Assembly (NCBI GenBank): GCA_028284865.1
Contig: JANQQV010000012.1
Location: 8,886 to 72,885 of the forward strand
Direction of reading: 5' to 3'
Origin: Rhodothermales bacterium
GTDB taxonomy: Bacteria > Bacteroidota > Rhodothermia > Rhodothermales > UBA10348
DNA length: 64,000 bases
Shown here: piece after piece, positions 8,354-60,922 of the stretch
Layout: every line of letters begins with the position of its first letter
Numbering within the stretch: position 1 is the stretch's first letter
Translations under genes and position numbers: made by a program
The notes under the pieces: generated by a model
Databases searched by the model: none
What the model was told of the DNA's origin: nothing
What the model saw: the letters and a program-made list of their open reading frames with translations, nothing else

Positions 8354-8763
8354 GGCAGAGAGCGGTTGGTTCGAGGGATTGTTTCATGGCTTCCTCCTGA
8401 GCTACCCTTTTGGGTGTAGCACGGTGTGGTCACCATGTTTTTGCCGATGAGTCGGTCAAATGGCCGCTCACTACGAGGTGATCGGCCGCGGGTTTCGAAC
8501 GCTATACACTGCTCATGTTACGTATAAACAGTGCCTTAGCAGGGATGAAAATCGATTTCATCATCCGTTCGAAACCGTTTCATGATCGGTTCACCGGCTG
8601 TTCTCCCGGCGTTGATGCAAGCTCCATGCCGACTTCATCTAAGGCGTGTCGAAGCCTGCATCCGATGCCTTAAATACACGAGAGGTCTTCGGCAGACCCA
8701 TCTCGTTGATGCCGTTTTCACACAAAAGAGCCCAAAATCGGCCTGTATCAGCCCAGAAGCCCT

Positions 8764-9909: not shown

Positions 9910-9928
9910 CCTGTCTCAGGCCCGTTCC

Positions 9929-16732: not shown

Positions 16733-16926
16733 AAGGCTCCCGTCCCGGGTATCCTGAACACACCATTTCCTGCTGAATATCCACCGAAACGTTCGTCGCC
16801 ACTGCCCGTTTTGCTACCACCTTTCCCTGAAGGGCATTCTTCTTTTTGCGACCTGAACGGATATTCATGATCCTATCTTTTGCTGCTGGCCGTCTTGCTC
16901 GGATGCGTGCTGGTTTGGTGCATGGC

Positions 16927-17793: not shown

Positions 17794-17796
17794 GAC

Positions 17797-19371: not shown

Positions 19372-19383
19372 GGGAGGAAGAAG

Positions 19384-20460: not shown

Positions 20461-20498
20461 GTCACCGGTATCTCGTATCACCCTAATCGGGTTTCAAC

Positions 20499-25858: not shown

Positions 25859-28504
25859 CTATTCAGCAGATTCTCCCGTGTCGGTATCTGACGCAGTGTC
25901 CTGACCGCCTTCGCCAGCGGTGTCCGAATCAGCAGTCGTGGCATCATCAGAGGCGCCTTCGACAGCTTCTTCATCGTCGACCATCACCTTGGTGACATCG
26001 GCAATGGAGTCGCCATCGCGCAGTTTGATGACCCGGACGCCCTGGGTGTTGCGACCCAGTCGGGAGATGCTTCCAATGTCCATCCGGATCATGATGCCCT
26101 GGACGGTCGAAATCATCAGGTCATTCTTTTCCAGAACGCCCTTGATAGCGACGATGGGGCCTGTTTTCGACGTGGTCTTCTGGGCAATGATACCTTTTCC
26201 GCCGCGTGACTGAAGGCGATACTCATCGAGCGCCGTTCGCTTTCCGTAGCCACGGGCGCTGATGGTCAGGATATCCCGAGCCTCATCGTCAACGACAATC
26301 ATGCCGATGACTTCGGCATCTCCGGCCAACCTGATGCCACGCACTCCGCGGGTGTTTCGACCCATGGGGCGAGCGTCGGACTCGTTGAAGCGGATACAAA
26401 CGCCGGACGAAGACGCAATGATCACGTTGGCGCTACCGTCCGTGAGGTGTGCTTCGATCAGCTCATCATCATCATCAATGGAGATGGCAATGATGCCGTC
26501 GACACGCGGACGAGAGAACGCTTCCAGCTGTGTCTTCTTGATCTGACCGCTCTTGGTGGCCATCAGGACGAAGTGGGAGTTGAGGAAGTCCTCATTCCTG
26601 AAATTGTCCTTTGAGACCGGCAGGACCGCTCTTACGCGGTCCTCAGGGCCAATCTGGATGCAATTACGGATCGAGCGTCCTTTCGAAGTACGCGTGCCTT
26701 CCGGGATTTCGTAGATCCGGAGCCAGTAGCATCGGCCCTGATCGGTGAAAAACAGGAGGTAATCGTGGTTGTACCCCACGAAAAGATGCTCGACGAAGTC
26801 TTCGTCGCGCATCGACGTACCTCTCTTGCCAACGCCACCACGACCCTGAGCCGCGTATTCGGTAGCGGAGGTTCGCTTGATCAATCCCTGATGGGAGATC
26901 GACACCACGACCTGCTCATCGTCAATCAGGTCCTCGATGAAGATGTCGCCGCCGCCCGTGTAATCAATCTCGGTGCGACGCTCATCGCCATACTTGTCCC
27001 GCATCTCGACCAGTTCGGTCTTGATGATGTCCATTCGCAGGCCTTCGTTGGCCAGGATCTCGTTCAACCGCTCGATTTCCTGCATGATGGCCTTGAACTC
27101 GTCCTCGATCTTCTGACGCTCGAGACCGGTCAGGCGATTGAGGCGCAGGTCCAGGATGGCCTTGGCCTGGATTTCGCTGAGGCTGAACATGGACTCGCCA
27201 TGCGTAGGGAGGCCAAGCTTGACCAGCTGATCGGTCGTCAGCTTGGACGGGAAAACACCTGCCATCAGGTTTTCCCGGGCCTCATCCGTGTCCTTGGAGT
27301 GGCGGATGATGGAAATGACCGCATCCAGATGGTCGAGGGCGATCGTGAGGCCTTCCAATACGTGAGCGCGCTCTTGCGCTTTACGCAGCTCAAAACGCGT
27401 TCGGCGCTGAACCACTTCATGGCGATGCTCCACGTAGTAGTGGATCATCTCTTTCAGGTTCAATGTCCTGGGCCGTCCATTGACCAGCGCCACAACATTC
27501 ATCCCGAAGGTCTGCTGGAACTGCGTGTACTTGTAGAGCTGATTCTGGACAACCATCGGCACTGCATCGCGCTTGAGCTCGATGACAATGCGCATCCCAT
27601 CGCGATCGGATTCGTCGCGCAGGTCGGAAATCCCTTCGATTTTCTTGTCGCGAGCCAGAACCGCGATTTTCTCTAGCAGGGAGCTCTTGTTGACCTGGTA
27701 CGGAATTTCCGTGGCAATCAGGGCATAGCGGCCCGGACGAATTTCCTCTTCGTGGATGCGCGCACGCATGACCACGCGACCGCGTCCCGTGTGATAGGCT
27801 TGCCGAACTTCGGTATGTCCGTAGATGATGCCGCCGGTTGGGAAATCTGGAGCAGGCATGAGCTGAACCAGCTCGTCGATGCCGATGTCCCGGTTTTCGA
27901 TATAGGCGACCGTGGCATTGATCACCTCCGTCAAGTTGTGCGGAGGAATCTTTGTAGCCATTCCAACGGCAATACCATCTGACCCGTTTACCAGCAGGTT
28001 CGGGATGGCAGCCGGAAGCACTTCGGGCTCTTGCAGAGAGCCGTCGAAGTTGTCCTGGAAATCGACCGTCTCTTTGCCGAGGTCCTTCAGCATCTCCTCA
28101 GCCAGCCGGGTCATGCGAGCCTCGGTGTATCGCATGGCGGCAGCGCCGTCCCCGTCGACGGATCCGAAGTTGCCTTGCCCGTCGACCAGCAGGTACCTCA
28201 AAGAGAAGTCCTGGGCCATACGGACCATGGTGTCATAGATGGCCGAATCACCGTGAGGGTGATACTTACCAAGGACCTCACCAACCACACGCGCACTTTT
28301 CTTGTACGACGAGCCAGCACCCATGCCCTGCTCGTTCATCCCGTACAGGATGCGCCGGTGTACTGGCTTCAGTCCGTCCCTGACATCGGGAAGTGCACGA
28401 CTCACGATCACTGACATCGAGTAATCGATGTAGGAGGATTTCATCTCCTCCTCGATGTTGATCGGAATGATGCGAGGGAGGTTCGTTCCGTTTTGTTCGT
28501 CCAT
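25859..28504 (-). CDS. gyrA: DNA gyrase subunit A
   Basis: [13 protein letters not shown] and the active-site [10 protein letters not shown] are present, followed by C-terminal beta-pinwheel repeats. It ends in an acidic tail ([39 protein letters not shown]). Confidence 0.95.
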
Positions 28505-28872
28505 CCGCTACACCACAGGAAACCCTGTGTTTTCTGACCTGATTTGATGTGATTCCGGGGTTGTCGCGGGGGCTTCAGGACACGCCCGCGCTATCTCAGA
28601 AAAGATACGAAAAAATGCCCTCTGGACCAAGCAAATAGAGGGATGTTGATTACTCTGTAAAACCAAGAGACGCAACGAGTTATATGGCCTCGGAAGAATT
28701 CCATTCATCTGCGGGAAAAAGGGGCTCAGACTGACCTCAAAACCACGCCTTTTCAAGACGAAGATGCCGTGAAACCCGTGACGTTTTCCCGTTGGTCGAC
28801 GGCACTCCTGAAACCAGGCCTCGTCTTCCCGTACAGAGGCATGAACTTTTTCCACTACTGCCTCGATTCTTG

Positions 28873-31140
28873 ATGCGATTCTTTACCCGGATCATCCGCG
28901 TCCCGCTCCTCGTCCTGACTCTGTTGATCGCAGGGTTCGCGCCATCTGCAATGGCTCAGGAGGCTTCCATCAGCGGCTTCGTGAGAGACGCCGATACTGG
29001 CGAAACACTCCTGCTGGCCAATGTCCGGATCAAGGACACGCTCATCGGTGCCGCCACGAACACCAGTGGATACTATGCCCTGACGGGACTCGAGCCTGGC
29101 GACTACGTGGTTCAGTTCTCCTACATCGGCTATCAGCCGCTCGAACTGTCCATCACACTTGCTCCCGGTGAGTCGCTTCGACGCGATGTAGACCTTCTGC
29201 CGCAGGAGTTCGAGGTGGACGAAGTGGTCGTGACCGCCGACGCAGACACCGAAGAAGAACAGCGGCAGCTGGGTGTGAGCCGCATGCCTACGGCGACCAT
29301 TCGGCAATTGCCCACGGTTCTCGAACCTGACGTATTCCGCTCTCTGCAGCTCCTGCCGGGTGTCAAGTCGGCCTCTGACTTCTCGAGCGGTCTGTACATC
29401 CGGGGTGGAAGCCCGGATCAGACCCTGATTTTGCTGGATCGTACCACGGTCTACAACCCGACCCACTTCTTCGGCCTCTTCTCCACGTTCAACCCGGACG
29501 CCATCAAGGATGTGCGGCTTTACAAGGGCGCGTACGGCGCTGAATATGGCGGCCGGATCGGCTCCGTAGTCGACATCTACAACAAGGACGGTAACCGTCG
29601 TGAGAACGCCGGGTCTGTTTCCGTTGGCCTCCTGGCCTCCCGCGCCCTGGTTGAAGGCCCTCACAAGAGAGGATCATGGATGTTGGCTGTCCGACGCTCT
29701 ACGGTGGAGCCACTGCTCGCCATCGCCCGCAACCAGGATGTGGAAGGCATTCCCAACACATTCTATTTCTATGACGCGAACGGAAAGGTGAACGTCGACA
29801 TCAACCAGGACAACCGCCTTTCGCTGTCCTTCTACTCCGGACAGGATGTGGTCGACGTTCCGATTGCCGATCAAGTAAGTGCCCGGCTCCGCTACGGCAA
29901 CCGAACCCTCAGCACAAACTGGACCCACCTGTTTTCGGATCGCCTCTTTTCCAACTTCACCGTCACCGGGTCCCACTACTTCAGCAAGCCTGAATTCGAG
30001 TTTGCTACCACTGATGTCTTCCAGACAAACGATGTCTGGGATTACTCGGTCAAGGGTGACTTCGAGTACATCCCGGACTCACGCAATCAGTTCAAAGCGG
30101 GCTTCTGGATGGGGAATTACCGCTTCGACTTCCGCAGCGTCTTTGATGGCCTCGAAGGGCTGAATCTGAAAACGCGCGCCATCTACACGAACCTGTTCGG
30201 CGAATACATCTTCCGACCAACAGCGTCCTGGACCATCACTTCCGGGTTGCGCGGTGCGTACTTCTCCGATGGTGATTACGTGCGTGTCGAACCCCGCCTC
30301 GCTGTCGAGCGTCGGGTGACGGACAAGTTGTTTGCCCAGGTCGGCATGGGACGTTATCACCAGTTCCTGACTCTGGTCACGAATGAGGCCTTCTCGGGCC
30401 TGGATACGTGGCTCTCCGCCGCCGAAAACGTGAGCCCAGCGTTCGGCGACCAGATCGTGACAGGACTCAAGTACACGAGCGACGCCGGATTCCGAATCGA
30501 GTGGGAAGGCTACTATCGCACGATGCGCGATCTGTTCTCCCTCAACCCTTTCCTGCCCGATGTGGCCGGTCTGGAGTACGAGGAGCTCTTTCACTTCGGG
30601 GAAGGGTATGCCACGGGTAGCGAGGTCTTCATCCAGGGATCCATTGGTCCGTTTTCTGGCTTTGCCGGATACACGTTCGGTGTAACGAAGCGTCGCTTCC
30701 CGACGATCAACGAGAATCAATACTACGCGCCGAAGTACGACCGGACGCACGATCTGAATGTGACGACGAACGCCCGATTGTCGTCGAAATGGACATTCAC
30801 ATCGGTCTTCACGTATGCCACCGGTCAGGCATACACTCGCCCATCCTCGCAATACCGACTCGGAAATTCACCCTTCGAGGCGCAGCAGACCGAGGTACTG
30901 GTGTCGCCGTTCAACGGGGCTCGGCTGCCGGCCTACCACCGTCTGGACATCGGATTCACGCGCAAAGGATCGCTGTTCGGGGCGGAGTCAGAGTGGCAGT
31001 TCCAGGTCATCAACGCCTATAACCGCCGCAACATCTGGTTCTATTTCTACGAGTTCGAAGGCGATGGCGATGTAAGCCGGGAGGTTGTCCCCCAGATCCC
31101 GGTGCCTGTTCCGAATATCTCCTACACACTTCGATTCTGA
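28873..31140 (+). CDS. TonB-dependent receptor-like outer-membrane protein with N-terminal carboxypeptidase-regulatory-like domain
   Basis: ORF trimmed to the ATG at 28873. It has a signal peptide ending AMAQE, then ISGFVRDADTGETLLLANVRIKD...TNTSGYYALTGLEPGDYVVQFSYIGY, a plug region (DEVVVTAD, RGGSPDQTLILLD) and a long barrel ending YTLRF. Confidence 0.8.
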   Translation: MRFFTRIIRVPLLVLTLLIAGFAPSAMAQEASISGFVRDADTGETLLLANVRIKDTLIGAATNTSGYYALTGLEPGDYVVQFSYIGYQPLELSITLAPGESLRRDVDLLPQEFEVDEVVVTADADTEEEQRQLGVSRMPTATIRQLPTVLEPDVFRSLQLLPGVKSASDFSSGLYIRGGSPDQTLILLDRTTVYNPTHFFGLFSTFNPDAIKDVRLYKGAYGAEYGGRIGSVVDIYNKDGNRRENAGSVSVGLLASRALVEGPHKRGSWMLAVRRSTVEPLLAIARNQDVEGIPNTFYFYDANGKVNVDINQDNRLSLSFYSGQDVVDVPIADQVSARLRYGNRTLSTNWTHLFSDRLFSNFTVTGSHYFSKPEFEFATTDVFQTNDVWDYSVKGDFEYIPDSRNQFKAGFWMGNYRFDFRSVFDGLEGLNLKTRAIYTNLFGEYIFRPTASWTITSGLRGAYFSDGDYVRVEPRLAVERRVTDKLFAQVGMGRYHQFLTLVTNEAFSGLDTWLSAAENVSPAFGDQIVTGLKYTSDAGFRIEWEGYYRTMRDLFSLNPFLPDVAGLEYEELFHFGEGYATGSEVFIQGSIGPFSGFAGYTFGVTKRRFPTINENQYYAPKYDRTHDLNVTTNARLSSKWTFTSVFTYATGQAYTRPSSQYRLGNSPFEAQQTEVLVSPFNGARLPAYHRLDIGFTRKGSLFGAESEWQFQVINAYNRRNIWFYFYEFEGDGDVSREVVPQIPVPVPNISYTLRF

Positions 31141-31147
31141 GCGGGTA

Positions 31148-32143
31148 ATGATGATGAAGCGCACGAAAACGACACTGAAATCCGTGAAACGGAGCATTTC
31201 GATGAGATATACTGGATTGGCCCTGGTGGCCCTGATGCTGATGGTGGCCGGCTGCGATACAACCAGCCCGTCGACCCACGAAGAAGAGATGATCGTCGAG
31301 GCATATCTGGTGGCAGGTGAATCACTGCCATCGATCTGGCTGACCCGAAGCCTGGATATCGATGCCGTATGGTCAGAACAGGCCGCTTCGATCAATGATG
31401 CTTCAGTCCGTCTCGAGCTGTTGGCTGCTGATGGTAGTGTGGAGGGCGTATTCCCTTATACCCGGTCCATCCAGGGCTCCGGACAATACGTCCCGCAGGA
31501 CCCGCATACGGTCCTGCCTCAGCGACGCTATCGGTTGGCTGCAGATGCCCCTGGACTTCCTTCGATCACTTCGGAAACGCTCGTGCCGGAGCAATTTGAA
31601 CTACTCGACATCAGTCATTCGACTATCGAGTACCTGGATCCTGAGCAGTTCTCGTTCCTGGTCACCCAGAGTGAGTTTGCCGATCGCCAGTCGATTTTCG
31701 TCTTCACTATCGCGAATGAGCAGGCGGAAGCCGACAATCTGGTGACGGCGTACGTGGATCTGATTTTCGATCAGGACGAACGGGAAAGCGGAGAGCCGCT
31801 GGTCCTCAACGATGAAGACCGCCTTGAGCTGCAGCGCTTCACGTCTCCGCCCATCAACGAGGCCAACTACGACGTACTGCCAGACGGAACGCTTCGCGTC
31901 CGTCTGCCCTGGTTTGCTGTCATCTTCTACGGTGAGAACGAAATCACCATGAGCGTATTGGACGACAACCTGTACGACTTCCAGCGCTATCAGCAGGTTC
32001 AGCAGAACGGCGGCTTGCTTTCGCCAGGCGAGATTCCCAATGTGCTGGATCCGATCCAGGGCGGTGCCGGCATCTTCGGTAGCATGGCCCGGGTCAGCAG
32101 CGTTGTGACCATCGTACCGGAAGGTTCAACGACCGGCAACTAG
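31148..32143 (+). CDS. DUF4249-like lipoprotein (usual partner of this receptor type)
   Basis: It has a lipobox (MLMVAGC) and lies 7 nt after the receptor stop. The pattern EEEMIVEAYLVAGESLPSIWLTRS resembles DUF4249 N-termini, recalled from memory. Confidence 0.6.
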   Translation: MMMKRTKTTLKSVKRSISMRYTGLALVALMLMVAGCDTTSPSTHEEEMIVEAYLVAGESLPSIWLTRSLDIDAVWSEQAASINDASVRLELLAADGSVEGVFPYTRSIQGSGQYVPQDPHTVLPQRRYRLAADAPGLPSITSETLVPEQFELLDISHSTIEYLDPEQFSFLVTQSEFADRQSIFVFTIANEQAEADNLVTAYVDLIFDQDERESGEPLVLNDEDRLELQRFTSPPINEANYDVLPDGTLRVRLPWFAVIFYGENEITMSVLDDNLYDFQRYQQVQQNGGLLSPGEIPNVLDPIQGGAGIFGSMARVSSVVTIVPEGSTTGN

Positions 32144-32191
32144 CTCGAACTGGAAGGCCGATTTATCCCGAATTGAGACGATTCGGACGCT

Positions 32192-32206
32192 TGGCACAGG
32201 ATTTGG
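32192..32206 (+). promoter_or_regulatory. weak sigma-54-like element TGGCACAGGATTTGG
   Basis: The -24 TGGCAC is perfect, but the -12 reads TTGG instead of TTGC. It is about 70 nt upstream of the giant gene ATG. Confidence 0.2.
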
Positions 32207-32274
32207 ACATCTGAGTCGCACCAAACGGTGCATTTCTGTCAAAACAGCCTCAGCAGGCTGGATTGGCCTATTTG

Positions 32275-35200
32275 ATGCGACTCAGCTCTTCGGCACATAT
32301 CGCCCGATGGAGCCGGCAGCTGGTGCTGCTGGCTTTTGTCTCATTTCTGCTTGGATTCTGGTCCAAAGTGGCGATGGGGCAAAACATCACCCTTCAACCT
32401 CCGGAAGTGGAGCGGGAAGGAGTGGTCCGGACGTCCGTCCTGTTCGGCTCTTCGGACGTCGTCACGCTCCGATGGGAGGAAGCGACCCAGGGCTTGACGT
32501 TTCGTGTAGGACTTGAGCCAGGAGAGTACGGATTCACGTCATTCACCATGCGTGGAACGACGCGTTCTCAGTTTGCTCCGGAAGTGGTAGGATTGCCGCC
32601 AGGAGTGTACTACGGGATCCTCACGAATTCGGCGGAGCGGACGTTTACCGAGATCCAGATCGACGCCTCCACCGATCCGGACATTCGATATTCGCGCGAG
32701 ATCCGGTTTGCTGTCGAGACCGAACAGACACCGCGCATCCTGGCGCCGCAGAACACGATTTCCGAGCAGGTACCCACGTTTCGTTGGGAGTCCGTGCCCG
32801 GCGTCACAGCCTATGCGCTTGTGGTCTCGTCGACGCCATTCACGGTCACCAGTCGTAGTGCGCAGTTGTCCGAAGTCAATGGACTCGCTCCAACATGGGT
32901 TCATTTTACTACCGAAACCAGCGCCCGCTACGGCGAACCGTCTGAATCCAATCCGCTGGCACAGTTCGCTGCCTCATCCCTCGTTCCGGGACGCATCTAC
33001 TACTATGCAGTTTTCAATGCATACAGCGCGTCGGATCCGGCATTCCTGAGTGTTCAGGCCGGGGGTGTTTCGTCATTCACATTGGAGAATCGCGGGGCAC
33101 TGGATACACCCTTCCTGACATCACCCTCGGAAGGGCAGACCGTTTCAGCGGGACAATCTGTTATCCTGGAGTGGGATGCAGTCCCGGGCGCGTTGTCTTA
33201 CGATGTTGTGCTGTTTGAACGCCTCGAAACCGCAGATGCGATCTCGGATCTGCAGGTATTTGCTTCCAACACGTCCAACACGTCGATCACGCTGTTTGCC
33301 CGCGAAGTCCTGAGACGCGGAAACTATCGGTGGTTCGTGATTGCGAACGATCGGGAGGGCGCTGCCAGTGTAAGCGAGACCGGCTCCTTCCGATTTGACA
33401 CGCCGATGGGGCGGTTCTCTGCCGTCACGCTTTCCGGATCAGATGGTGAGCAGTTGATCGGTGCGCCCATCATGGTTCGATCCACGGATGGCGGATTCAG
33501 TCCGATCAATCCGTTTGTCGAGGCCTTCAGCTCCATCGTTGCCGATTCGCTCTCGATCGGAAACTATGCGTTTACGGCCTCCAAGGATGGATTCTCGGAC
33601 GTCACGGTTTCGGTGGAGATTCGGGAGAACGAACTCACGCAGGTAGCCCTTCCATTGCAGCCCCTGCCTTCGCGAATCATCGGTCAGGTGGTGGATGGCG
33701 ACGGGGCGCCGGTGGTCAGCGCCGACGTCCAGTTCGAGGACATCGTCTCAAGCGAGATGTTTGAGGCGACGACGGACGCCAACGGAGTGTTCTCCCGGGA
33801 TCTGGTTGCCGGGACCTACGAAATCCAGGTGACGAAGGCGGGATTCCGTCCGGCGTCGCCGATTACGGTGACGGTGGCGGAGAACCAAACCCTGGTTCTT
33901 CCGATCGCCATCATCATCATCGACGATGAAGTGAGCGTCTCAGGACGGGTGATCAACCAGGACGGGATTGCGGTGCCTCAGGCTCGTGTTCTGGCCGTCT
34001 CTGGAAGTTTGTCGCTTGAGACTGTGACTGATGGTAGCGGTCAATGGAATCTGGAGTTGAGTGAAGGCTCATGGGAGATCTCCACCTCCAAAGAGGGTTT
34101 CCTCAGTTCATTGCCGCGATCGTTTTCATTCCGGGCAGGGGATGTCTTTTCGAATATCAACTTTGTTCTTGTTCAACAGGCCAGCCGGATAGAGGGAACG
34201 GTTCAAGGGCATAGAACCGATGCGGATGGTTCGCTGGATGTGTTTCCGTTGGGAGATGCTACCGTTACGGCCTGGCCGCTGGCTGGCGAAGCAGTATCCA
34301 CAACGACGGACAGTCAAGGGCGATTCCTGCTGGATCTTGGAACGGGAGCGTATCGGGTATCCGCCAGCGCGCCGGGCTACGACCCGAATGGGACATTTGA
34401 CTTCGTATTGGATGCCAACGAGACCATCCGGGATGTCCGCTTCAGGCTGGAAGAATGGACCTCAACGGTATTTGGATCCGTCATTGACGGCACTGGAAAC
34501 CGGGTAGATGATGCCCTGATCACGACCTCAGGAGGAGGAGAGACGACTTCTGTCGGAGGAGCATTCGCATTGCCGGTTCCGGTGGGACGACAAGAGCTGC
34601 GGGCCCTGCATCCTGACTATGTGGAATCCGACGCCGTCACGGTCGCGCCGTCTGCCAACGAGCAGATCACCGGCGTGCAGCTGATGCTGTTCGAAAACGC
34701 CGCCCGTCTTTCCGGCGTGGCCCAGACGGCGCGTGGGCCGGTTTCCGGTCTGACCGTTGTTGCCTCCCAGGGACCGGATGTGTTCGAAACGAAAACCGGC
34801 CCCGATGGCTCGTACGCTTTCCAACTTCCGTCAGGGCTCTGGGAGATCGCCATCGTCAGTGACCGCTATCGGCTTGCCGATCCCGTCGTGCTGCCGCTTC
34901 GATCAGGTGCCAGGGCCGGTGGGGTAACGCTATCCCTTGTTCCGGACTATGTCCTCATGACCGGATTCATCTCGAGTGGTAGCCGGCCGCTTGAAGGCGT
35001 TCGCCTGGCCTTCGAAGACCTGAACGAGTCAACGGGCCGACCGCTCACACTGACGACCCAGACCGCCGCAGATGGTTCGTATGCCCTCATCATCGGCGCG
35101 CTGACCACGTATCGACTTCGTATCGATTCGCCTGGATACGAAACATTTTTCCACACGTTTACCTCGCCGGTCGCCGATGAGGAAATCGGATTCGATGCCG

Positions 35201-38200
35201 CGTTGAAGCCGTCCATCTCGGTTTTGAGTGGACGGGTGATCCGGCAAGGAGGAGGCCCGGTTGCAGGTTCGGTCATTGAGGCCCGGATAGGCTCCAATAC
35301 GCTTTTTTCTTCCGAATCTGCATTTGATGGTTCTTTTTCGATGAGTGTCGAGGCGGGCGCTTATCAACTACACACGGAAGCCATTGGCTTCGAATCGACT
35401 TCGATTCCAGTGCAGGTCGCTGCCGGACAGCAATTGGAAGGTCTGACGATTTCACTGCAACCGTCGACCGGAAACCTGACGGTCTCCGTGATCAACCCGC
35501 TGGGCGGAGTGCCCGTTGCCGGCGCGAATCTCCTGATGGAAGGTCCCACGGTTCGATCGGCCTCGACAGACGAATCCGGCAACGCATCCCTTTCTTCGCT
35601 TCCGCCTGGTTCCTATCAGATCACGGTTCAAGCCCCTGGATTCCAGCGGATCACACGAACGATCCCAATCACTGCCAGGACCACGGCCTCGGAGCGATTC
35701 ATCCTGATACCCGCTCAGGGAGTCGTTTCAGGCAGCATTCGAGACGCTGCCACTGGAGGCGGCCTGACGGGTGCGACGGTCCGGCTCACGGGAGTTGGAG
35801 TGGACCGCAAAGTGACCACGGATGACGCGGGCAGCTACGTTTTCTCAGCCGTTCCGATCGGGACCTATGCCATCGAAGCCCAACGATCCGGCTATGGTCC
35901 GGCGCCATCGGTCGCGGCCCAGGTCACCGCAGCCACGCCAGGATTCACGGCAGCCGATATCAGATTGACGCGGGCCGACGGGCGTATTGAAGGGACCGTG
36001 ACCGGCGCAAGCGGCATCGGATTGCTCTCCGGTGTGGATGTCGTTGCACGGTCAACCAGTGGATCCATCAGTTCGAGAAGCAGAAGTGACGGTACGTATT
36101 CATTGACAGGACTCGCGTCCGGATCCTGGACTGTATCGGCCGCAATTGAGGGGTTCCGGGGCAGCCCTGTCGCCGTCGAAGTGATCTCCGGCCAAACGTC
36201 GTCGGGTAATCTTGTTCTCAATCCCAACGCGGGTTCACTGCGTGGCAGGATTCGGGCGGCAGGAGGGAGTGCGCTTCCATTCGACGTCTCCATGGAAATC
36301 CTCACGCTGCAGGAATCCGATCAAACATTCTCGTCAGCTGAAGGAGATTTCTCTTTTGATGGGCTACCCATTGGCGAGCCGTTCATCCTGCGATCGCGCA
36401 TGCAGCGTGAAGGCTATCAGGACGTTGAGCGTACGGTGACGATCCCAGCCACCGGTCAACTGGATGTTGGAACCATCTCAGTCCAACTGAAGGATGCCAC
36501 ACTGATAGGTAATACAGGGACCGGCGGTGCCACCATCACGCTTCAGGATCTGGTATCCGGCAGGTCTGTCGCTGTTGTGACGGCCTCGTCAACAGGCTCT
36601 TATGAACTGTCCAACATGACGCCCGGTGCCTATTTGGTGGTGCCATCCCACCCCGGATTCCAGTTCACTCCTGCCAACCGAACGGTTGTGCTTCAAAATG
36701 GCGTTGATGTAGAAGCCTCTTTCTCTGCGACTGCTTCAGTAGGAATCGTCCAAATCGCCGTGAGGCGCTCAACCGGTGAAGGCGTTCCAGGCATCCAGGT
36801 CCGCGTAGCCAGTCTGGATCGAAGCATCGACGAATTGTTCACCAGTGATGTGAACGGATTGGTTCTGCCTTCAGCATTGCCGCTCGGTCTACGATATCGC
36901 GTGGAGCCCGTGTCGATCGGTTTCCAATTCGACCCGGAAGCCACTCAAATCGATCTCGCGGCCTCAAACCAGGCCTCGATATCATTTGTGGTTCGCGAGG
37001 TGAATGCCTTCCTCTCGGGAACGGTTCGTTCAACCGGTGGAGCTCCTATTGCAGACGCCCAAGTAGTCGCCTTCCAGTCGGCCACGGTGCGCTATTCCAC
37101 TGTCTCTGCATCGGATGGATCGTATCAACTGGGTCCGATGGCTGGTGGAAACTACGCCGTCAGCGCCTCGCGACTCGGATTCGTCGACGCCAGTCGGAAT
37201 GTAACGCTGGCCTCCAATCAGCAGCTGGAAAACGTGGATCTGGCGCTGGCACCGCAGAGTGTGACCATAGCTGGGCGTGTACTTCGAGCCGGGGCTCCGG
37301 TCCCGGGGCTCACTGTCCGATTGGCGCGGCCCATCGCGGCGGAAGTCGTGACTGATGCAAATGGGCTGTACATCTTTGAGAACGTTCCGGTGGAAACCGG
37401 CCAGACTACGGTCGCAGAAGTCGCCGTGGATCGATCAGGTCGCTCAGCATTGGTTCGGACCTTGTCGTACGGAGCCACGGATGTCGGTTCGACGCTCATA
37501 GTCCCGGATTTTGTGTTGTCCAGTGGTCGAATCCGCATTACCGCTTCGGATGGCGTGAACCCGGTACCGGATCTTCGACTGGATGTCCAAGGACCAGAGG
37601 GCAGGGTTTTGTCCATTGTCACTGCTGAGGACGGGACTGCCACCACCGAAGCGGATCTGGACACCGGCGAATACCTGGTCACGCCAGTCAATTCCAAACG
37701 GTTGCTCCCGCCCGAAGCGATTCGCCGGGTCAGCATTCCAAACCCTGATGCGGACGTGAGCGCCACGTTGGTTTTGCCCTACCAGCATGTTGCTCCGGAA
37801 TTCGTGCGGAGTGATGAACCGCTTCGCCTGGTGGTCACTTTTCCGGATGGCCAATTCGATACGACGCTGGGTTTTTTCGTGGAGTTTACCCTGAATGGCG
37901 ATGACCCGGTCAACCAGCCGCTTTCATTGGTCAATGGCGAATTGGTTGCCACATTGCCAGCACCCGGAGAATTGGAGATCACCTATCGCATCGTGGCACA
38001 TTCGACGGGTGGTGGTCTGGCTTATCAGACATCAGTTTTCCGATACACACCGATCGTTGCAGGTCGGCTCCAGAATCTGGTTTTACAGCCAGACCCGCAC
38101 AATACGCAGCTTCGCACGGGCTCTTCCTATACAGTCCAGCTGCAGATCCGGGATGGCCTGGGCGAGGATTTGACAGCGGCAGTCCTCCAAAGCGGCTCTG

Positions 38201-39396
38201 TAACCTGGTCTTCCCAAACCGGCGGAGTCGCCATTCAACCATTCACCGCGGTCAATGGCATTGGTGCCGTCCTCACGCCACAACAGGCGGGCATTCTTTC
38301 AGTAACGGTCAATGTGCGGCTGGGTACGACCAACCTGCAGACGACGGCCATCTTTGCAGCCGGTTCAGCAACGGTCTCCGATCTTCTGGTCACTGCTCCT
38401 GAAACCCGCCTCTCCAACAACGGCGGATCCATGGCGCTCAGGGTGGAAGGCGAATCTGACTCAGGCGAACGTGTCCTTCTCGGAGATGCTGTGCGCTGGC
38501 GTCTGATTCCAGACGGGATTGCCGAGATCGATACGGAAGGACGCCTTCGCACCACAGATGAACGGTTTATCGGTCCATTGACCGTGATCGCGCAGGACTC
38601 TGAATCCGGTCTCCAGGATTCTCTGCAAATCTCTCTATTTGCCCAGCTTGAAGGTGACCGGGATCGTTTGCTCACGGATCATTCCGGAACGGAGATACTC
38701 ATGCCGGCAGGTGCCATACCATTCCGGGCCCAACTTGGTCTTTCTTATCCGGGGCAGCCCGAACCCAAGCGATTCGGTTCGGCGCGCGATGGAGAGCCGG
38801 GCACAACAGCCGGTGAACACGTTGTCCGGTTCCTTTTGCAATCCGATCGATCATTGCGAGGCGACACCCTTGCGGCTCCTGCCCGGATATCCATGACGGG
38901 TGATGCTTCCCTGAACCTGTTTCAAGGAAATCAGGCGATCGGTTTCTATCTGGACGATGAAGCAGCTTGGTCAGCTCTTCCGTCAGAAACATCGGGAGAG
39001 CAGGTCGAATCCGGTCATGTATCCCGACTCGGAGACTACGCCGTCGTAGCAGAAGCGACCAGTCTGCAAATTCGACACCTGGCGGCACTTCCGACACCCT
39101 TCTCGCCTGACATCGCGCCGCTCAAGATCGGCTACTTCCTCGAGTCGCCAAATCCGCCTGCAACGGTCCGGGTCGATATCCTGACCGTCCGGGGTGAGCT
39201 TGTTCGCCGCCTCGTTCCCGAGCAGCAGCAGTGGCCGGGCCGATATGGTTCGCGGACCAGTCCGCTGGAGATTACCTGGGATGGCCTTACGGATGATGGG
39301 CGCCGGGCGCGAAACGGACGCTACCTGATCCGGGTGACCGCTCGTGACCGGTCGGGCTCGGTTGCACAAACCATTCCTGTGGTTCTGGTGAAATAG
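32275..39396 (+). CDS. giant (2373 aa) secreted surface protein with signal peptide, FN3-like modules, about 16 tandem carboxypeptidase-regulatory-like domains, an Ig-like region and a FlgD-Ig-like C-terminal sorting domain
   Basis: ORF 32263 (TTG) trimmed to the ATG at 32275. The signal peptide ends VAMGQN. Two W-x-x-V-P-G-x-x-x-Y modules are present (FRWESVPGVTAYALVV and LEWDAVPGALSYDVVL). The repeating unit is G-x-V-x-x-x-G-x-P-V-x-x-A-x-V...TD-x-x-G-x-(Y/F)...G-x-Y-x-(I/V)...GF. The C-terminus is PTPFSPDIAPLKIGYF...ITWDGLTDDGRRARNGRYLIRV...VVLVK. Confidence 0.85.
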   Translation: MRLSSSAHIARWSRQLVLLAFVSFLLGFWSKVAMGQNITLQPPEVEREGVVRTSVLFGSSDVVTLRWEEATQGLTFRVGLEPGEYGFTSFTMRGTTRSQFAPEVVGLPPGVYYGILTNSAERTFTEIQIDASTDPDIRYSREIRFAVETEQTPRILAPQNTISEQVPTFRWESVPGVTAYALVVSSTPFTVTSRSAQLSEVNGLAPTWVHFTTETSARYGEPSESNPLAQFAASSLVPGRIYYYAVFNAYSASDPAFLSVQAGGVSSFTLENRGALDTPFLTSPSEGQTVSAGQSVILEWDAVPGALSYDVVLFERLETADAISDLQVFASNTSNTSITLFAREVLRRGNYRWFVIANDREGAASVSETGSFRFDTPMGRFSAVTLSGSDGEQLIGAPIMVRSTDGGFSPINPFVEAFSSIVADSLSIGNYAFTASKDGFSDVTVSVEIRENELTQVALPLQPLPSRIIGQVVDGDGAPVVSADVQFEDIVSSEMFEATTDANGVFSRDLVAGTYEIQVTKAGFRPASPITVTVAENQTLVLPIAIIIIDDEVSVSGRVINQDGIAVPQARVLAVSGSLSLETVTDGSGQWNLELSEGSWEISTSKEGFLSSLPRSFSFRAGDVFSNINFVLVQQASRIEGTVQGHRTDADGSLDVFPLGDATVTAWPLAGEAVSTTTDSQGRFLLDLGTGAYRVSASAPGYDPNGTFDFVLDANETIRDVRFRLEEWTSTVFGSVIDGTGNRVDDALITTSGGGETTSVGGAFALPVPVGRQELRALHPDYVESDAVTVAPSANEQITGVQLMLFENAARLSGVAQTARGPVSGLTVVASQGPDVFETKTGPDGSYAFQLPSGLWEIAIVSDRYRLADPVVLPLRSGARAGGVTLSLVPDYVLMTGFISSGSRPLEGVRLAFEDLNESTGRPLTLTTQTAADGSYALIIGALTTYRLRIDSPGYETFFHTFTSPVADEEIGFDAALKPSISVLSGRVIRQGGGPVAGSVIEARIGSNTLFSSESAFDGSFSMSVEAGAYQLHTEAIGFESTSIPVQVAAGQQLEGLTISLQPSTGNLTVSVINPLGGVPVAGANLLMEGPTVRSASTDESGNASLSSLPPGSYQITVQAPGFQRITRTIPITARTTASERFILIPAQGVVSGSIRDAATGGGLTGATVRLTGVGVDRKVTTDDAGSYVFSAVPIGTYAIEAQRSGYGPAPSVAAQVTAATPGFTAADIRLTRADGRIEGTVTGASGIGLLSGVDVVARSTSGSISSRSRSDGTYSLTGLASGSWTVSAAIEGFRGSPVAVEVISGQTSSGNLVLNPNAGSLRGRIRAAGGSALPFDVSMEILTLQESDQTFSSAEGDFSFDGLPIGEPFILRSRMQREGYQDVERTVTIPATGQLDVGTISVQLKDATLIGNTGTGGATITLQDLVSGRSVAVVTASSTGSYELSNMTPGAYLVVPSHPGFQFTPANRTVVLQNGVDVEASFSATASVGIVQIAVRRSTGEGVPGIQVRVASLDRSIDELFTSDVNGLVLPSALPLGLRYRVEPVSIGFQFDPEATQIDLAASNQASISFVVREVNAFLSGTVRSTGGAPIADAQVVAFQSATVRYSTVSASDGSYQLGPMAGGNYAVSASRLGFVDASRNVTLASNQQLENVDLALAPQSVTIAGRVLRAGAPVPGLTVRLARPIAAEVVTDANGLYIFENVPVETGQTTVAEVAVDRSGRSALVRTLSYGATDVGSTLIVPDFVLSSGRIRITASDGVNPVPDLRLDVQGPEGRVLSIVTAEDGTATTEADLDTGEYLVTPVNSKRLLPPEAIRRVSIPNPDADVSATLVLPYQHVAPEFVRSDEPLRLVVTFPDGQFDTTLGFFVEFTLNGDDPVNQPLSLVNGELVATLPAPGELEITYRIVAHSTGGGLAYQTSVFRYTPIVAGRLQNLVLQPDPHNTQLRTGSSYTVQLQIRDGLGEDLTAAVLQSGSVTWSSQTGGVAIQPFTAVNGIGAVLTPQQAGILSVTVNVRLGTTNLQTTAIFAAGSATVSDLLVTAPETRLSNNGGSMALRVEGESDSGERVLLGDAVRWRLIPDGIAEIDTEGRLRTTDERFIGPLTVIAQDSESGLQDSLQISLFAQLEGDRDRLLTDHSGTEILMPAGAIPFRAQLGLSYPGQPEPKRFGSARDGEPGTTAGEHVVRFLLQSDRSLRGDTLAAPARISMTGDASLNLFQGNQAIGFYLDDEAAWSALPSETSGEQVESGHVSRLGDYAVVAEATSLQIRHLAALPTPFSPDIAPLKIGYFLESPNPPATVRVDILTVRGELVRRLVPEQQQWPGRYGSRTSPLEITWDGLTDDGRRARNGRYLIRVTARDRSGSVAQTIPVVLVK
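33400..37700 (+). repeat. protein-level array of about 16 carboxypeptidase-regulatory-like (PEGA-like) domains inside the giant gene (approximate bounds)
   Basis: Examples are IIGQVVDGDGAPVVSADVQF..TDANGVFS..GTYEIQVTKAGF, VSGSIRDAATGGGLTGATVRL..TDDAGSYVF..GTYAIEAQRSGY and LSGTVRSTGGAPIADAQVVA..ASDGSYQL..GNYAVSASRLGF. The units have diverged, and I saw no long identical DNA repeats. Confidence 0.7.
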
Positions 39397-39399
39397 GAT

Positions 39400-40422
39400 A
39401 TGACCCGGTTTTTCCGACATATCGCCCATTGCCTGCATCGCAGAGAGATTCTGCGGACGCTTGCCATCTTTGCGGTCACGGCCGTGGTATTCGCTCCCGC
39501 TTCCCGTGCGCAGGATCTATCAAGCATTCCGGCGGCGTTCGTTGATGTGGGAATCGGGGCCCGGTCCGCAGCAATGGGATACACCGGAGTCGCTTCCGAG
39601 CGTGGTGCATCAGCCATGGCATGGAATCCGGCATCCCTCGCTTCAGATCTGGGCACAGAAATCGCATTCTCGTATGTGGATCAGGCCGAGATGGTTGAAT
39701 TCGCCCATGTTTCCTGGGTGATGCCGCTTCGGGAAGGCCGCTCTGCCTGGGGACTTTCGGCATTCGTTTCCGGAGATGACATGCTTCGCGAGGCAACCAT
39801 GGAAGTGGCCTACAGTCACCGACTGCGGTTCATCTGGCTCGGGACAAAGGTTGGTTATCGACTGGCTGAGTTCGGCAAGAACGCCCTTTCTGGTGGTGAC
39901 TACGTGGTGTTTGATCCGGACGAGGTCGCCACGGGACTGGACCGGCAGGTCAACGGGAAAGCGCAGGGACTGCTGGTGGATCTGGGCATGCGGCTCGAGC
40001 TGACGCACCGGCTGGACCTGGGTGTGGTAGCCCGTAACGTGGCCGCGCCCGTGGAGTGGACTTCCCGCAGTCTGGCCCGGCCCGGTGAGCAATCCTATAT
40101 CGAATCCATCCCGTTTGAACTCTCCACGGGCGCGGCTTACCAGTTGAGTGAGCAGCTGGGCGGCTACCTCGAATGGACGCCATCCCTGGGCGGAGATGCC
40201 ATTGCCCGCTATGGAATGGGGCTGTCGTACGACCCCATGGATGTCATCACGCTTCGCATGGGCCGGTTGTTGACCATGGATCGCAGGCGGGATGAATGGA
40301 AGACGTTGGGTTTCGGGATCCGGACACCCGGTAACCTAACCTGGTCGATGGAAGCGGACTACGCGTTCATCATTTCTGATTTTGCCCGCACACAGCAAAT
40401 CTCTCTGAGGTTCGGACTGTGA
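39400..40422 (+). CDS. PorV/PorQ-family-like outer-membrane beta-barrel (B1)
   Basis: Its ATG is 3 nt after the giant gene stop. The signal peptide ends SRAQD. The motif is FVDVGIGARSAAMGYTGVASERGASAMAWNPASLA. The internal segment LLVDLGMRLELTHRLDLGVVARNV parallels A1 GLDLGFALKLRENLAVGLVADDL. Confidence 0.65.
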   Translation: MTRFFRHIAHCLHRREILRTLAIFAVTAVVFAPASRAQDLSSIPAAFVDVGIGARSAAMGYTGVASERGASAMAWNPASLASDLGTEIAFSYVDQAEMVEFAHVSWVMPLREGRSAWGLSAFVSGDDMLREATMEVAYSHRLRFIWLGTKVGYRLAEFGKNALSGGDYVVFDPDEVATGLDRQVNGKAQGLLVDLGMRLELTHRLDLGVVARNVAAPVEWTSRSLARPGEQSYIESIPFELSTGAAYQLSEQLGGYLEWTPSLGGDAIARYGMGLSYDPMDVITLRMGRLLTMDRRRDEWKTLGFGIRTPGNLTWSMEADYAFIISDFARTQQISLRFGL

Positions 40423-40508
40423 GGTGGCTGCATTCACATATCGGTTCGACGTTCGGTCGTGTTCAACAAGGCGCTATTGGTCCAGCCTCGGCCGGCAGTC
40501 GAGTCCGG

Positions 40509-42200
40509 ATGAGTGCCTTCATGCTTCTGGCCATACTTGCAGGATGGCTGACCTTCTCGCCCATGCGCGTGGAAGCGCAGACTTCGCAGGAGTTCACCAT
40601 CGATCGATTTGATGGGGGTCATCTCGGACTGGATTTCAGGCTGGGATCGAATCTCTTTGGTACTGGAATGGGAGATGGTTCATTTGGCCGAGTCCAGTCT
40701 GCCTACAGTCCTTTCGATGGGGGCTCGGTGTTCGGCAATCCCGCTCAACTATCCTTCCTGGACAAGCCACAGCTGGGTCTCGAATTCCGTTTCCCGATCT
40801 GGAATGGCTCCTGGGGGCTGGGTCCGCAATCCTTGCTTTCACGAAGCGATGTGCGGCAACGGACCGACGACGTCATGACAGACATGCTGTATCCGGCAGG
40901 TCCTCCTCCAGCCTACACGGATATATCCCGCCTGGGTGTGGGACAACCTCGGCAATTGTCTGCGTTCTGGCTGAGCTGGCCAGTAAACGAACACGTGACC
41001 ATTGGCGCAGGGTATCGCCAGCCGCTGCTTGCAACGGCTTCTGTGGATTGGGACGGGCTTTCGGTCAATATGACCGGAACCCAGTCCAGCGCTTCGGGCA
41101 GTACGCCCATTGATCTTCTGCTGGAGATGACCTTGAACGGTCGCTCCAACGTGACACTCAATGAGATCAGCATTGGTACCGGTGGACTCCTCGAACGCTA
41201 CTATTTCGGATCAGTGTGGTGGGGAATCACTTTCTTCCGGACGTATGCGTCCACCCGGCTGGATGTCACGGCCGAACCGCGCGGGTCCGTTGCCCTGGCC
41301 GGTTCGGAGCGTCACTTCTTCAATGATCCGACCGATGGGACACTTGACAGGGATGCAGGCGAATCCAACCAATTCTGGTGGCGCATGCAGGCCGGATATC
41401 AAGGTGGCGGAATGGGTGCGCGACTCGGATTTGTTCACCGGACGTACGGAGATCGATTCGGCAGTTCGTTCTTGCTGTCGATTCCCCCAAGACTGCGCTT
41501 GTGGGATCCAAAAGCATTTGCTGAGAGCCATGTACCCGTGTTTTTTGACATGGTGGGCTCATTGGACGCTATTGATGCGGACAATGTGGATTTGATCGAC
41601 ATCGATCAGGTCGACCTGGGCAGACCAACGCTGACACGACAGACCCGGGACTATCTCGGCCCTGATGTCTTGGTCCGGATGCCTACAACGTTGACGCTGG
41701 GTATGGATCTTCCACTTGGTCGCCACCGCGTTGTGATCAACGGCCTTCGCTACCTTGGACCGCTCAGCATTGAAGGGGACTATTCGCGTGAGAACGGCGA
41801 AGTCCAGTCATTCCGCGTTGGCGTCCAGCCGTCTTGGGGCGTCCGATTCGGACTCGATATCGTTGGTCGTCCTGAAGGTGGTTTGGGACCGCTGGGCATT
41901 CCGCTGCGCATCCTGACGCTCGACCTGGATGGTCTGGTCTTCCAGATGCTCGGGGACCGCGTGTCCTACGAAGATCCCCGATATCGGCTCGCTGCCGGTT
42001 TGTCGTGGGGTACACCGATTGCTGATGGAGCGGACGAATCGCTGGCCTCGTCACTCGATGGGCTCCTGACAGGCTCGGTACCGGTCGCGCTTACGCTGGG
42101 CCGGTCCTACTCGCTGAAGCAGCGCACGCACGTTGGCGTGCACGTCGCTGGGATTCCCGATTTCCTGATGCGATTCTCCATCGCTTGGGACGTGGACTGA
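40509..42200 (+). CDS. large predicted outer-membrane beta-barrel protein (B2), distantly PorV-like
   Basis: The ATG at 40509 gives the signal peptide MSAFMLLAILAGWLTFSPMRVEAQ. An alternative GTG at 40419 overlaps the B1 stop as GTGA. It contains a GSVFGNPAQLSFL motif and is Gly/aromatic-rich with an alternating strand pattern. Confidence 0.55.
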   Translation: MSAFMLLAILAGWLTFSPMRVEAQTSQEFTIDRFDGGHLGLDFRLGSNLFGTGMGDGSFGRVQSAYSPFDGGSVFGNPAQLSFLDKPQLGLEFRFPIWNGSWGLGPQSLLSRSDVRQRTDDVMTDMLYPAGPPPAYTDISRLGVGQPRQLSAFWLSWPVNEHVTIGAGYRQPLLATASVDWDGLSVNMTGTQSSASGSTPIDLLLEMTLNGRSNVTLNEISIGTGGLLERYYFGSVWWGITFFRTYASTRLDVTAEPRGSVALAGSERHFFNDPTDGTLDRDAGESNQFWWRMQAGYQGGGMGARLGFVHRTYGDRFGSSFLLSIPPRLRLWDPKAFAESHVPVFFDMVGSLDAIDADNVDLIDIDQVDLGRPTLTRQTRDYLGPDVLVRMPTTLTLGMDLPLGRHRVVINGLRYLGPLSIEGDYSRENGEVQSFRVGVQPSWGVRFGLDIVGRPEGGLGPLGIPLRILTLDLDGLVFQMLGDRVSYEDPRYRLAAGLSWGTPIADGADESLASSLDGLLTGSVPVALTLGRSYSLKQRTHVGVHVAGIPDFLMRFSIAWDVD

Positions 42201-42229
42201 CAAGCTCGGTCGGATCTGCCCCTTCCGAT

Positions 42230-42754
42230 CTACCTGATCATCCCGTTTCTCCCGAGAGCTTCGTCACCCCAGCGCTCACCCATCATATGGCACAGGGCCT
42301 CCAGAGCTGCTTGGTCATCGGTGTCAAAGGCATCCGCGTCATCGGAGTCGACATCAAGCACGGCAATAACCTCTCCTGATGGCGTCAGGACCGGGACAAC
42401 GATCTCCGAAACAGTCGACGAGGAACACGCAATGTGACCGGGAAAGGCGTTGACATCGGGGACCAACTGGGTCTTCCGCTGCAGCGCAGCAGCTCCGCAC
42501 ACTCCGCGGTCAAAAGGGATGTCAATACAACCGTGTCCACCCTGATAGGGGCCCACTTGAAGGTGTGCCGGTCGAACGGTCCTGTAAAATCCGGTCCAGT
42601 GGAAGTGCTCGAACTCATGATGCAGTTCGCAAACAACCGTAGCCATGGCTGCTGTCCAGTCACAGGGTTCAGACAGAAGCGCGTCAATGCGTCCAAAAAC
42701 AGCCTTGTAGCGCTCAGGGATGGTTTGAGCAGAGGTGATGCCAGGTGAAGTCAC
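42230..42754 (-). CDS. msrC: GAF-domain free methionine-(R)-sulfoxide reductase (MsrC/YebR family)
   Basis: ORF 42230..42964 trimmed to the GTG at 42754, because the extension translates as low-complexity R/S/P sequence. WTGFYR, VGPYQGGHGCIDIPFDRGVCGAAA, FPGHIACSSSTVSEIVVPV and GVLDVDS parallel E. coli YebR from memory. Confidence 0.75.
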   Translation of the reverse strand: MTSPGITSAQTIPERYKAVFGRIDALLSEPCDWTAAMATVVCELHHEFEHFHWTGFYRTVRPAHLQVGPYQGGHGCIDIPFDRGVCGAAALQRKTQLVPDVNAFPGHIACSSSTVSEIVVPVLTPSGEVIAVLDVDSDDADAFDTDDQAALEALCHMMGERWGDEALGRNGMIR

Positions 42755-42920
42755 GAATTCGGACCGGGTACTGGGTGGATTCTGTGAATGCCGTCGGTGT
42801 ACGGCCGATTTCCGTCCCGGATCCGTCGAGAGTGACCGCGAATTTGGGGTTTGTCGTCGTACTCTAATTGCGGAACGACGGGGGGCACCCCTTGGGTAAA
42901 CACGTGAATGATTGAGCAAC

Positions 42921-43268
42921 ATGTCCGGAATGAAAACGGTGATTGTCAGCGCAGAGGACACCATGGAATTGGTGAGCGAGGCGCTTCAGAAGCGGTATCC
43001 GTCGACGGTATTCGCGGTCCGTCTCGAAGACAAGGTGGAGCAGGAAGACGATATCTGTGGAGTCGACGTGATCTGGGTTGAAGGTCCAGCACGCGACCGG
43101 GTTGAAGACATGCTCGATCGCTTCCAAGGTGTCAACTGGGATCCGGCGACAGGTGAGCTCCAGTCCCGATCGCACTACGCAGTCACGCCGGACGGCGATA
43201 TCGTGCGTGTGCTCTACAACGTCGACTATATCTTTTGCGACGGCCCCATGTTGGCCGAGTCCTTCTAG
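42921..43268 (+). CDS. small acidic hypothetical protein
   Basis: The ORF begins at a TTG at 42912. The first ATG is at 42921 and another is at 42930. The VDVIWVEGPARDRVEDMLDRFQGVNWD segment gave no confident family. Confidence 0.5.
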   Translation: MSGMKTVIVSAEDTMELVSEALQKRYPSTVFAVRLEDKVEQEDDICGVDVIWVEGPARDRVEDMLDRFQGVNWDPATGELQSRSHYAVTPDGDIVRVLYNVDYIFCDGPMLAESF

Positions 43269-60906: not shown

Positions 60907-60922
60907 AGCAAAGCACATGCCA
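60907..60922 (-). promoter_or_regulatory. sigma-54 (-24/-12) promoter TGGCATGTGCTTTGCT
   Basis: The - strand reads CAG-TGGCATG-TGCT-TTGCT, which matches the consensus TGGCACG-N4-TTGCW in spacing and at all core positions except one (C to T). The -12 element ends 38 nt upstream of the 60868 ATG. An NtrC-type activator gene is immediately upstream. Confidence 0.65.

Follow-up and report, generated by a model that had tools for sequence, protein, structure and literature searches.

A giant secreted protein encoded with two FadL-fold barrels in Rhodothermales and Ignavibacteria: a three-gene cassette distinct from a neighbouring receptor/DUF4249 pair

Introduction

Do five co-directional genes at positions 28873–42200 of a 64,000-nucleotide (nt) stretch from a Rhodothermales bacterium (GenBank assembly GCA_028284865.1, contig JANQQV010000012.1, positions 8,886 to 72,885) form one surface-assembly unit, or do they belong to separate systems? 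The genes of this stretch, hereafter the window, code for a TonB-dependent transporter (G1), a DUF4249 lipoprotein (G2), a giant secreted protein (G3) and two outer-membrane barrels (B1 and B2). An earlier note, made from the sequence alone, had read them as a single undescribed surface assembly or secretion unit, with a layout resembling that of sprB and sprF. We found that the five genes do not make up one genuine module, and that a three-gene cassette consisting of the giant, B1 and B2 is real and undescribed. No family model, name or paper was found for B2 or for this cassette. G1 and G2 match a described importer-plus-lid kind. In our judgement the locus is best explained, and probably so, by two independent units standing side by side, an importer with its lid (G1 and G2) and a cassette for a type IX secretion cargo and its anchor (G3, B1 and B2).

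Gene content of the locus

The direction and spacing of the five genes given in the earlier note were reproduced exactly by the list of open reading frames (ORFs) and their translations, and Pfam and NCBIfam bore out the domain content proposed for G1, G2, G3 and B1. The giant gene (32275–39396, + strand) encodes a secreted protein of 2,373 amino acids (aa) and is followed after 3 nt by B1 (39400–40422, +), coding for a PorV/PorQ/PorP-like outer-membrane barrel of 340 aa with a FadL-type fold. B2 (40419–42200, +) codes for an enlarged FadL-superfamily barrel of 563–593 aa, starting either with GTG at 40419 (a 4-nt overlap with B1) or with ATG at 40509 (a spacer of 86 nt). Upstream of the trio, and separated from it by 131 nt, is the neighbouring unit outside the cassette: G1 (28873–31140, +), a TonB-dependent transporter that has a plug and, at its N-terminus, a carboxypeptidase-regulatory-like domain, and, after 7 nt, G2 (31148–32143, +), a DUF4249 lipoprotein and putative surface lid of G1. 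Both flanks are housekeeping, with gyrA upstream on the opposite strand, and a small GAF protein, an S8 peptidase, dnaG and ppk downstream.

Independent distribution of the pair and the trio

Genomic contexts of relatives (loci numbered with the prefix L) were fetched from approximately 25 clusters of close B2 relatives, all of them derived from metagenomes or metagenome-assembled genomes (MAGs), and set against the window in tblastn comparisons. Across a group of Rhodothermales assemblies synteny is kept for the slot bounded by gyrA and the GAF/S8/dnaG genes, which was found there in four states. The pair (G1 and G2) and the trio (G3, B1 and B2) are both present in the window and in L004, L013, L005 (identical with L015), L014 and L007, while the trio follows directly after gyrA, without the pair, in L002 (identical with L003), L006 and L009. 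In the third state the pair is intact and the trio is not: in L021–L023 (8001–10641; more than 20 contigs) aa 1–462 of the giant are fused to aa 99–350 of B2, followed by a frameshift, and in L024–L025 (L024, 10001–11923; 13 contigs) a giant stump of 640 aa (giant aa 1–625) is left, B1 and B2 being gone. In the fourth state, seen in L018 (a 75-kb contig; 8459–10004) and in L008 (83–1625), two independent assemblies of one lineage, there is neither the pair nor the giant, and the last 15 codons of the latter are followed by B1 and B2; the start codon of B1 has changed from ATG to ATA, and the barrels are otherwise intact.

G1 and G2 themselves go together, both being present in L004, L005, L007, L013, L014, L021 and L024 and both absent in L002, L006, L009 and L018. 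The giant–B1–B2 order, on the other hand, was also found in unrelated contexts, namely in L010 (an Ignavibacteria MAG), L011, L012 and L001, with no receptor or DUF4249 gene upstream. Between the first three of these and the window the giant is alignable from end to end with 28–33% identity, B1 with 32–40% and B2 with 27–31%. Altogether, more than 15 independent assemblies share the order, with protein identities of 27–66%, and the arrangement of genes 3–5 is therefore not a matter of chance. The sprB-sprF-like layout, a giant gene with barrel genes downstream, is a conserved unit, as had been proposed.

As the pair exists without an intact trio and the trio without the pair at one and the same slot, a five-gene unit is not supported. 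Independent distribution in relatives, which had been set beforehand as the observation deciding against a single unit, is what the comparison revealed. In a neighbour-joining tree of B2 the pair-less Rhodothermales loci constitute one subclade, and the distant carriers fall outside. Most simply, the older element would be the cassette, beside which the pair was inserted, to be lost again later in one branch.

It should be noted that natural populations are losing the cassette, as seen from the fusion ORF of L021–L023 and the stump of L024–L025, both next to an intact transporter/DUF4249 pair. These truncated and fused remnants surfaced in a search with the N-terminal 470 aa of the giant, which recovered at least five proteins; there was no cultured carrier among the matches listed.

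A promoter-like element between the two units

The 200 nt upstream of the start codon of the giant were aligned for seven Rhodothermales loci. The intergenic DNA proved unalignable except for two conserved blocks, TCCCGAWTTGAGAC and TTGGCAY-N5-TTG. In the window, the former corresponds to the box TCCCGAATTGAGAC (32166–32179, +), a candidate regulator site located just upstream of the -24-like part of the latter, and the latter to TTGGCACAGGATTTG (32191–32205, +), a sigma-54-like -24/-12 element and candidate cassette promoter situated 83 nt upstream of the giant's ATG. Both blocks are kept whether the upstream neighbour is G2 or the divergent gyrA. The TTGGCAY-N5-TTG element is thus a candidate promoter of the cassette itself, and its retention with or without the pair was counted as support for a separate second unit. 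The pattern has three matches in the window, where 1.0 would be expected. A scan of 28400–42400 for sigma-70 promoters and terminators, which was not designed for Bacteroidota promoters, returned sites no more numerous than in shuffled sequence.

The window also encodes an NtrC-type sigma-54-dependent response regulator (61159–62634, −). A TGGCAT-N5-TTG sequence at 60909–60922 (−) is located just downstream of that gene and approximately 370 nt upstream of a gene for a 253-aa protein (59780–60541).

The giant protein

In G3 a signal peptide and an N-terminal Ig-like region precede 16 transthyretin-like repeats, which are followed by approximately 420 aa of beta-rich sequence without an assignment and by a C-terminal sorting/anchoring domain. 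The N-terminus, MRLSSSAHIARWSRQLVLLAFVSFLLGFWSKVAMGQN, was read by eye as a Sec signal peptide. The repeat array (33673–37761, +; aa 467–1829) consists of 16 CarboxypepD_reg-type domains with a period of approximately 85 aa. The earlier count of about 16 copies was upheld by a hidden Markov model (HMM) iterated on the giant itself, which yielded 16 full repeats (i-E-values from 1e-16 to 4e-25) and one degenerate copy at aa 383–457; Pfam PF13620 (CarboxypepD_reg) alone covers 14 stretches with a total of 425 bits.

The C-terminal domain (39022–39393, +; aa 2250–2373) is FlgD-Ig-like and PorU-CTD-like. The FlgD-Ig-like tail had been recognised in the earlier note, and Pfam FlgD_ig matches aa 2293–2358 with 33.7 bits, above its cutoff of 27. 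When isolated, the tail is also matched in NCBIfam by the PorU model NF033707, over the last 100 positions of that model (E 3.9e-7). Among solved structures it has marginal matches to FlgD and PorU only. In an alignment of ten orthologues the last approximately 170 residues are the best conserved segment of the giant, with a conservation of 0.73 over the last 73 aa.

These ten orthologues measure 2,342–2,386 aa and are colinear, with only 85 insertion columns. Such constancy of length across the divergence described above suggests that the giant has a defined structure and is not an adhesin whose repeats expand freely. Both the length and the 16 repeats are held from Rhodothermales to the Ignavibacteria MAG at 28% identity, which is unusual for repeat-rich surface proteins.

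The two barrels

Both barrels had been taken for PorV/PorQ-type proteins. This assignment stands for B1, which aligns to positions 5–321 of the 326 of the NCBIfam PorV/PorQ family NF033709 (E 1.7e-18). Its orthologue in L011 matches PF11751 (PorP_SprF), as does, weakly, the one in L001. By sequence, B1 is homologous to PorV/PorQ but lies beyond the curated family. The search of PDB sequences gave a marginal PorV match only (E 0.055). The AlphaFold2 (AF2) model (predicted local distance difference test score, pLDDT, 84) has the 14-stranded FadL-type barrel fold, like PorV, and Foldseek ranked PorV (6h3i_F) best by both template-modelling (TM) score and root-mean-square deviation (TM 0.59/0.58, 5.8; E 1.5e-8).

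The assignment does not stand for B2, which has no more than an N-terminal NPA-type motif, the one sequence feature common to the B1 and B2 profiles. Sequence homology between B1 and B2 was considered and is not claimed, profile-profile comparison giving a probability of only 15%, and this for the N-terminal NPA region alone. Neither Pfam nor NCBIfam has a family matching B2, and the search of PDB sequences with it was empty. The AF2 model of B2 (pLDDT 75) was matched by Foldseek to FadL/TodX (E 3e-6, TM 0.36–0.5). Neither B1 nor B2 directly matches Pfam Toluene_X, the model of the FadL/TodX family.

When 1.84 billion representatives were scanned in full with HMMER for matches to the B2 profile, 137 relatives were detected. 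Approximately 35 of these are full-length proteins of about 550 aa; they are joined by a second tier of 480–530-aa proteins, with some 100 representatives (P0086–P0185) matching the first approximately 430 positions of the profile (E from 1e-31 to 1e-4). One second-tier relative, P0084, which matches the B2 profile with E 5e-42, is recognised by Pfam Toluene_X (PF03349) with 34.3 bits against a cutoff of 29.7. B2 represents a small unnamed family of enlarged barrels; it belongs to the FadL superfamily and is not demonstrably of the PorV/PorQ type. Another second-tier member, P0103, is a 930-aa protein with a fusion to TPR repeats.

The fold of both barrels and their N-terminal NPA-type motif are shared with the FadL/TodX/CymD channels. 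Unlike these, B2 is 120–150 aa longer and has very long hairpins, and it is encoded next to a secreted giant, not in a catabolic operon.

The 4-nt overlap of B1 and B2 (ATGA or GTGA) is found in eight Rhodothermales loci. In the window, B2 continues after the GTG with RWLHSHI, which matches the start of the L004 orthologue, RWLFRHI; B1 begins with M-T-R-F-F-R-H-I. The segment 40419–40508 adds approximately 26 residues to the n-region of the signal peptide, before the hydrophobic core, and for this reason ATG 40509 was kept as an alternative start of B2.

The receptor and the DUF4249 lipoprotein

G1 is a protein of 755 aa ending in LRF, with Pfam matches to CarbopepD_reg_2 (69 bits) and Plug (37.8 bits, cutoff 23.9). 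G2 matches DUF4249 (61.5 bits, cutoff 28.5) and has the lipobox LMVAGC; since its orthologues measure 313–316 aa, an internal methionine (MRYTG…) is an alternative start of the window's G2. DUF4249 lipoproteins were proposed as putative lids of non-SusC TonB-dependent transporters; BT2173, one of them, is cofit with BT2172 and predicted on its outer face, and a DUF4249 gene adjoins the BT2172 transporter subfamily across dozens of genera (bioRxiv 10.1101/2023.03.17.533168, 10.1101/2023.08.23.554478). G1 and G2, likewise a non-SusC TonB-dependent transporter followed by a DUF4249 lipoprotein on the same strand, and gained and lost together, match this described kind of importer-plus-lid unit by analogy, G1 being likened to BT2172 by domain content and gene layout. 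In such a unit G1 would import a small nutrient across the outer membrane and G2 would act as its putative surface lipoprotein lid.

The earlier note had considered for G1 a role in export similar to that of Oar of Myxococcus, which also carries the N-terminal carboxypeptidase-regulatory-like domain on a TonB-dependent-receptor-like barrel. This proposal did not hold. The only solved structure matching G1, via this very domain, is the siderophore importer XusA; the domain is therefore not diagnostic of Oar-like export. Moreover, unlike Oar, G1 is paired with a DUF4249 lid, and no coupling of the receptor to the secreted protein was seen in relatives, where G1 and the giant are distributed independently; nothing points to export.

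Discussion

A cargo that is served by a dedicated FadL-fold barrel encoded downstream is a known principle. Genes of type B cargo secreted by the type IX system directly precede the gene of the cognate PorP/SprF shuttle or anchor, as in the SprB–SprF and other type B pairs of Flavobacterium johnsoniae and Porphyromonas gingivalis, where the SprF/PorP-type barrel binds the C-terminal domain of the cargo, is needed for its secretion and anchors it (PMC12618676, PMC9143113). The cassette resembles these pairs in that the gene of a very large surface protein is followed by the gene of a dedicated FadL-fold barrel. It differs from them in the tail, which is FlgD-Ig/PorU-like, in B1, which is best scored by the PorV/PorQ family, in the second, larger barrel, which is always present, and in its carriers, which are Rhodothermales and Ignavibacteria MAGs and not gliding Flavobacteriia. 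In PorU and PorZ, Ig-like C-terminal domains are retained and held by PorV and PorQ (PMC5562754, PMC10202324). Uncleaved Ig-like domains on a PorV-family barrel, and the presence of two barrels, are thus features of the PorU–PorV/PorZ–PorQ attachment complex to which the cassette may be likened, provided that the tail of the giant is retained in the same manner. The differences are that the cargo is a 2,373-aa repeat rod without a sortase or propeller domain, that B2 is not PorV/PorQ by sequence and that no link of the cassette to lipopolysaccharide attachment was seen. New in the cassette are its type of tail, the presence of a second and enlarged barrel, the constant length of the giant and the distribution over Rhodothermales and Ignavibacteria.

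The window contains a second cluster of a cargo and two barrels (16846–21428, +), with genes for an unknown 315-aa protein, a 524-aa BNR-propeller protein and two PorV/PorQ-family barrels. With 23.8 bits against a cutoff of 23, the tail of the BNR protein reaches TIGR04183, the type A model, and it also matches the PorZ and PorU tails; the barrels that follow it at 19384–21428, of 358 and 309 aa, score 104 and 123 bits against the PorV/PorQ cutoff of 90; the TIGR04183-positive tail and both above-cutoff proteins are located within 17797–21428. Type IX tails were also found on genes neighbouring the cassette in L010 and L011, and both Rhodothermaceae and the ignavibacterium Melioribacter are known to have such tails. 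On account of the type IX precedents and of this second cluster of the same pattern, we infer that the giant may be a type IX cargo held on the surface by cognate barrels, in analogy to SprB–SprF, PorU–PorV and PorZ–PorQ.

Under this reading, the second unit would be a cassette complete in itself, with transcription probably starting from a sigma-54-type promoter of its own. The giant would be exported by Sec, its C-terminal domain would stay uncleaved and bound to the cognate PorV-like B1, and the larger FadL-like B2 would serve as a second membrane partner. A rod of approximately 25 beta-sandwich domains, tens of nanometres long, would thereby be displayed on the cell surface, and the function of its tip would most likely be adhesion. 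We consider it possible, rather than probable, that the cassette is an unrecognised, portable fibre with a two-barrel anchor of the Fibrobacteres–Chlorobi–Bacteroidetes (FCB) group, in which B2 and the PorV-like barrel permanently hold a fixed-length rod of approximately 2,370 residues. To date, cognate barrels have been documented for PorU/PorZ and, in the form of PorP/SprF, for the type B cargo of type IX secretion, and the sorting and anchoring of the very many FlgD-Ig-tailed proteins in non-Bacteroidia FCB lineages is largely unexplored. If true, a portable two-barrel anchor would extend the cognate-shuttle principle from type B to FlgD-Ig-type tails and would give FadL-fold barrels a second protein-anchoring role. 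A compact and transferable cassette with a cargo of constant length and two dedicated barrels is also a tractable test of tail–barrel specificity outside model organisms. A neighbouring TonB-dependent transporter/DUF4249 pair should, as this case shows, not be counted into such giant/barrel modules.

Several observations weigh against a type IX cargo with its own promoter and barrels. The tail of the giant, scanned alone at E values up to 1, had no type A match (TIGR04183 or PF18962), nor did it match the type B model TIGR04131, and no type IX core gene was seen within the window. The score of B1, 67.3 bits, is below the curated PorV/PorQ cutoff of 90 bits, and the window's B1 had no Pfam match at E values up to 0.01. 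B2 is related to substrate channels (FadL/TodX) and is without precedent in described type IX systems. In the L018 lineage, B1 and B2 without the giant are still under purifying selection (ratio of non-synonymous to synonymous substitution rates approximately 0.1 versus L002). As to the promoter, the -12 part reads TTGG or TTGA instead of the canonical TTGC (consensus TGGCAC-N5-TTGC), and the element was not found upstream of the giant in the distant L010–L012, being lineage-specific.

Some of these points would be accommodated by two other readings of the trio. In one, which we find unlikely, B1 and/or B2 would be FadL-type channels of the ordinary kind, conducting hydrophobic substrates; they would not handle the giant and would adjoin it for shared regulation only. 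FadL, TodX and CymD are indeed the best structural matches of both barrels, a B2 relative passes the Toluene_X cutoff, and selection on the barrels persists in the lineage that lost the giant. However, the giant–B1–B2 order with its 3-nt and overlapping junctions is kept from Rhodothermales to Ignavibacteria at 27–40% identity, B1 and B2 were lost together with the 3′ part of the giant in L024–L025 and disrupted together in L021–L023, and the sequence of B1 is closer to PorV/PorQ than to FadL. Quite unlikely, too, is an autonomous export-and-anchor device independent of type IX secretion, in which B1 or, more plausibly, the enlarged B2 passes or threads the giant through the outer membrane: both barrels have the narrow, plugged FadL fold and not that of an Omp85 protein, usher or autotransporter, the tail of the giant resembles type IX C-terminal domains, and type IX-style cargo and PorV/PorQ-family proteins are encoded nearby in carrier lineages. 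Such a device would agree with B2 being a new family with no described role, with the failure of the tail in the curated type A and type B models, and with a compact cassette travelling into unrelated genomic contexts.

The reading of all five genes as one surface assembly unit, with an Oar-like receptor and a lipoprotein aiding the export or assembly of the giant, appears very improbable. Pair and trio have each been found without the other at the same locus, all distant carriers of the trio are without the pair, and the conserved promoter-like element lies between the two units. The common direction and short spacers, and the adjacency of the pair to the trio in six related lineages, would fit this reading, as would the N-terminal domain of the receptor, which is of the same type as the repeats of the giant; that domain, however, is also present on the importer XusA, and the pair as a whole matches a described importer/lid unit. 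We therefore prefer two independent units, the importer with its lid and the type IX-cargo/anchor cassette.

The gene downstream of the cassette

A gene for a small GAF-only protein (42230–42964, −) is convergent with B2, an orientation kept in the distant L011 (12659–13162), where its identity with the window's protein is 62%, versus 33% for the giant. On account of its retention in L011 it was considered as a possible regulator of the cassette and rejected: the protein is single-domain, is conserved at 62–85% identity and is absent from L010 and L001, and was for these reasons treated as a housekeeping neighbour.

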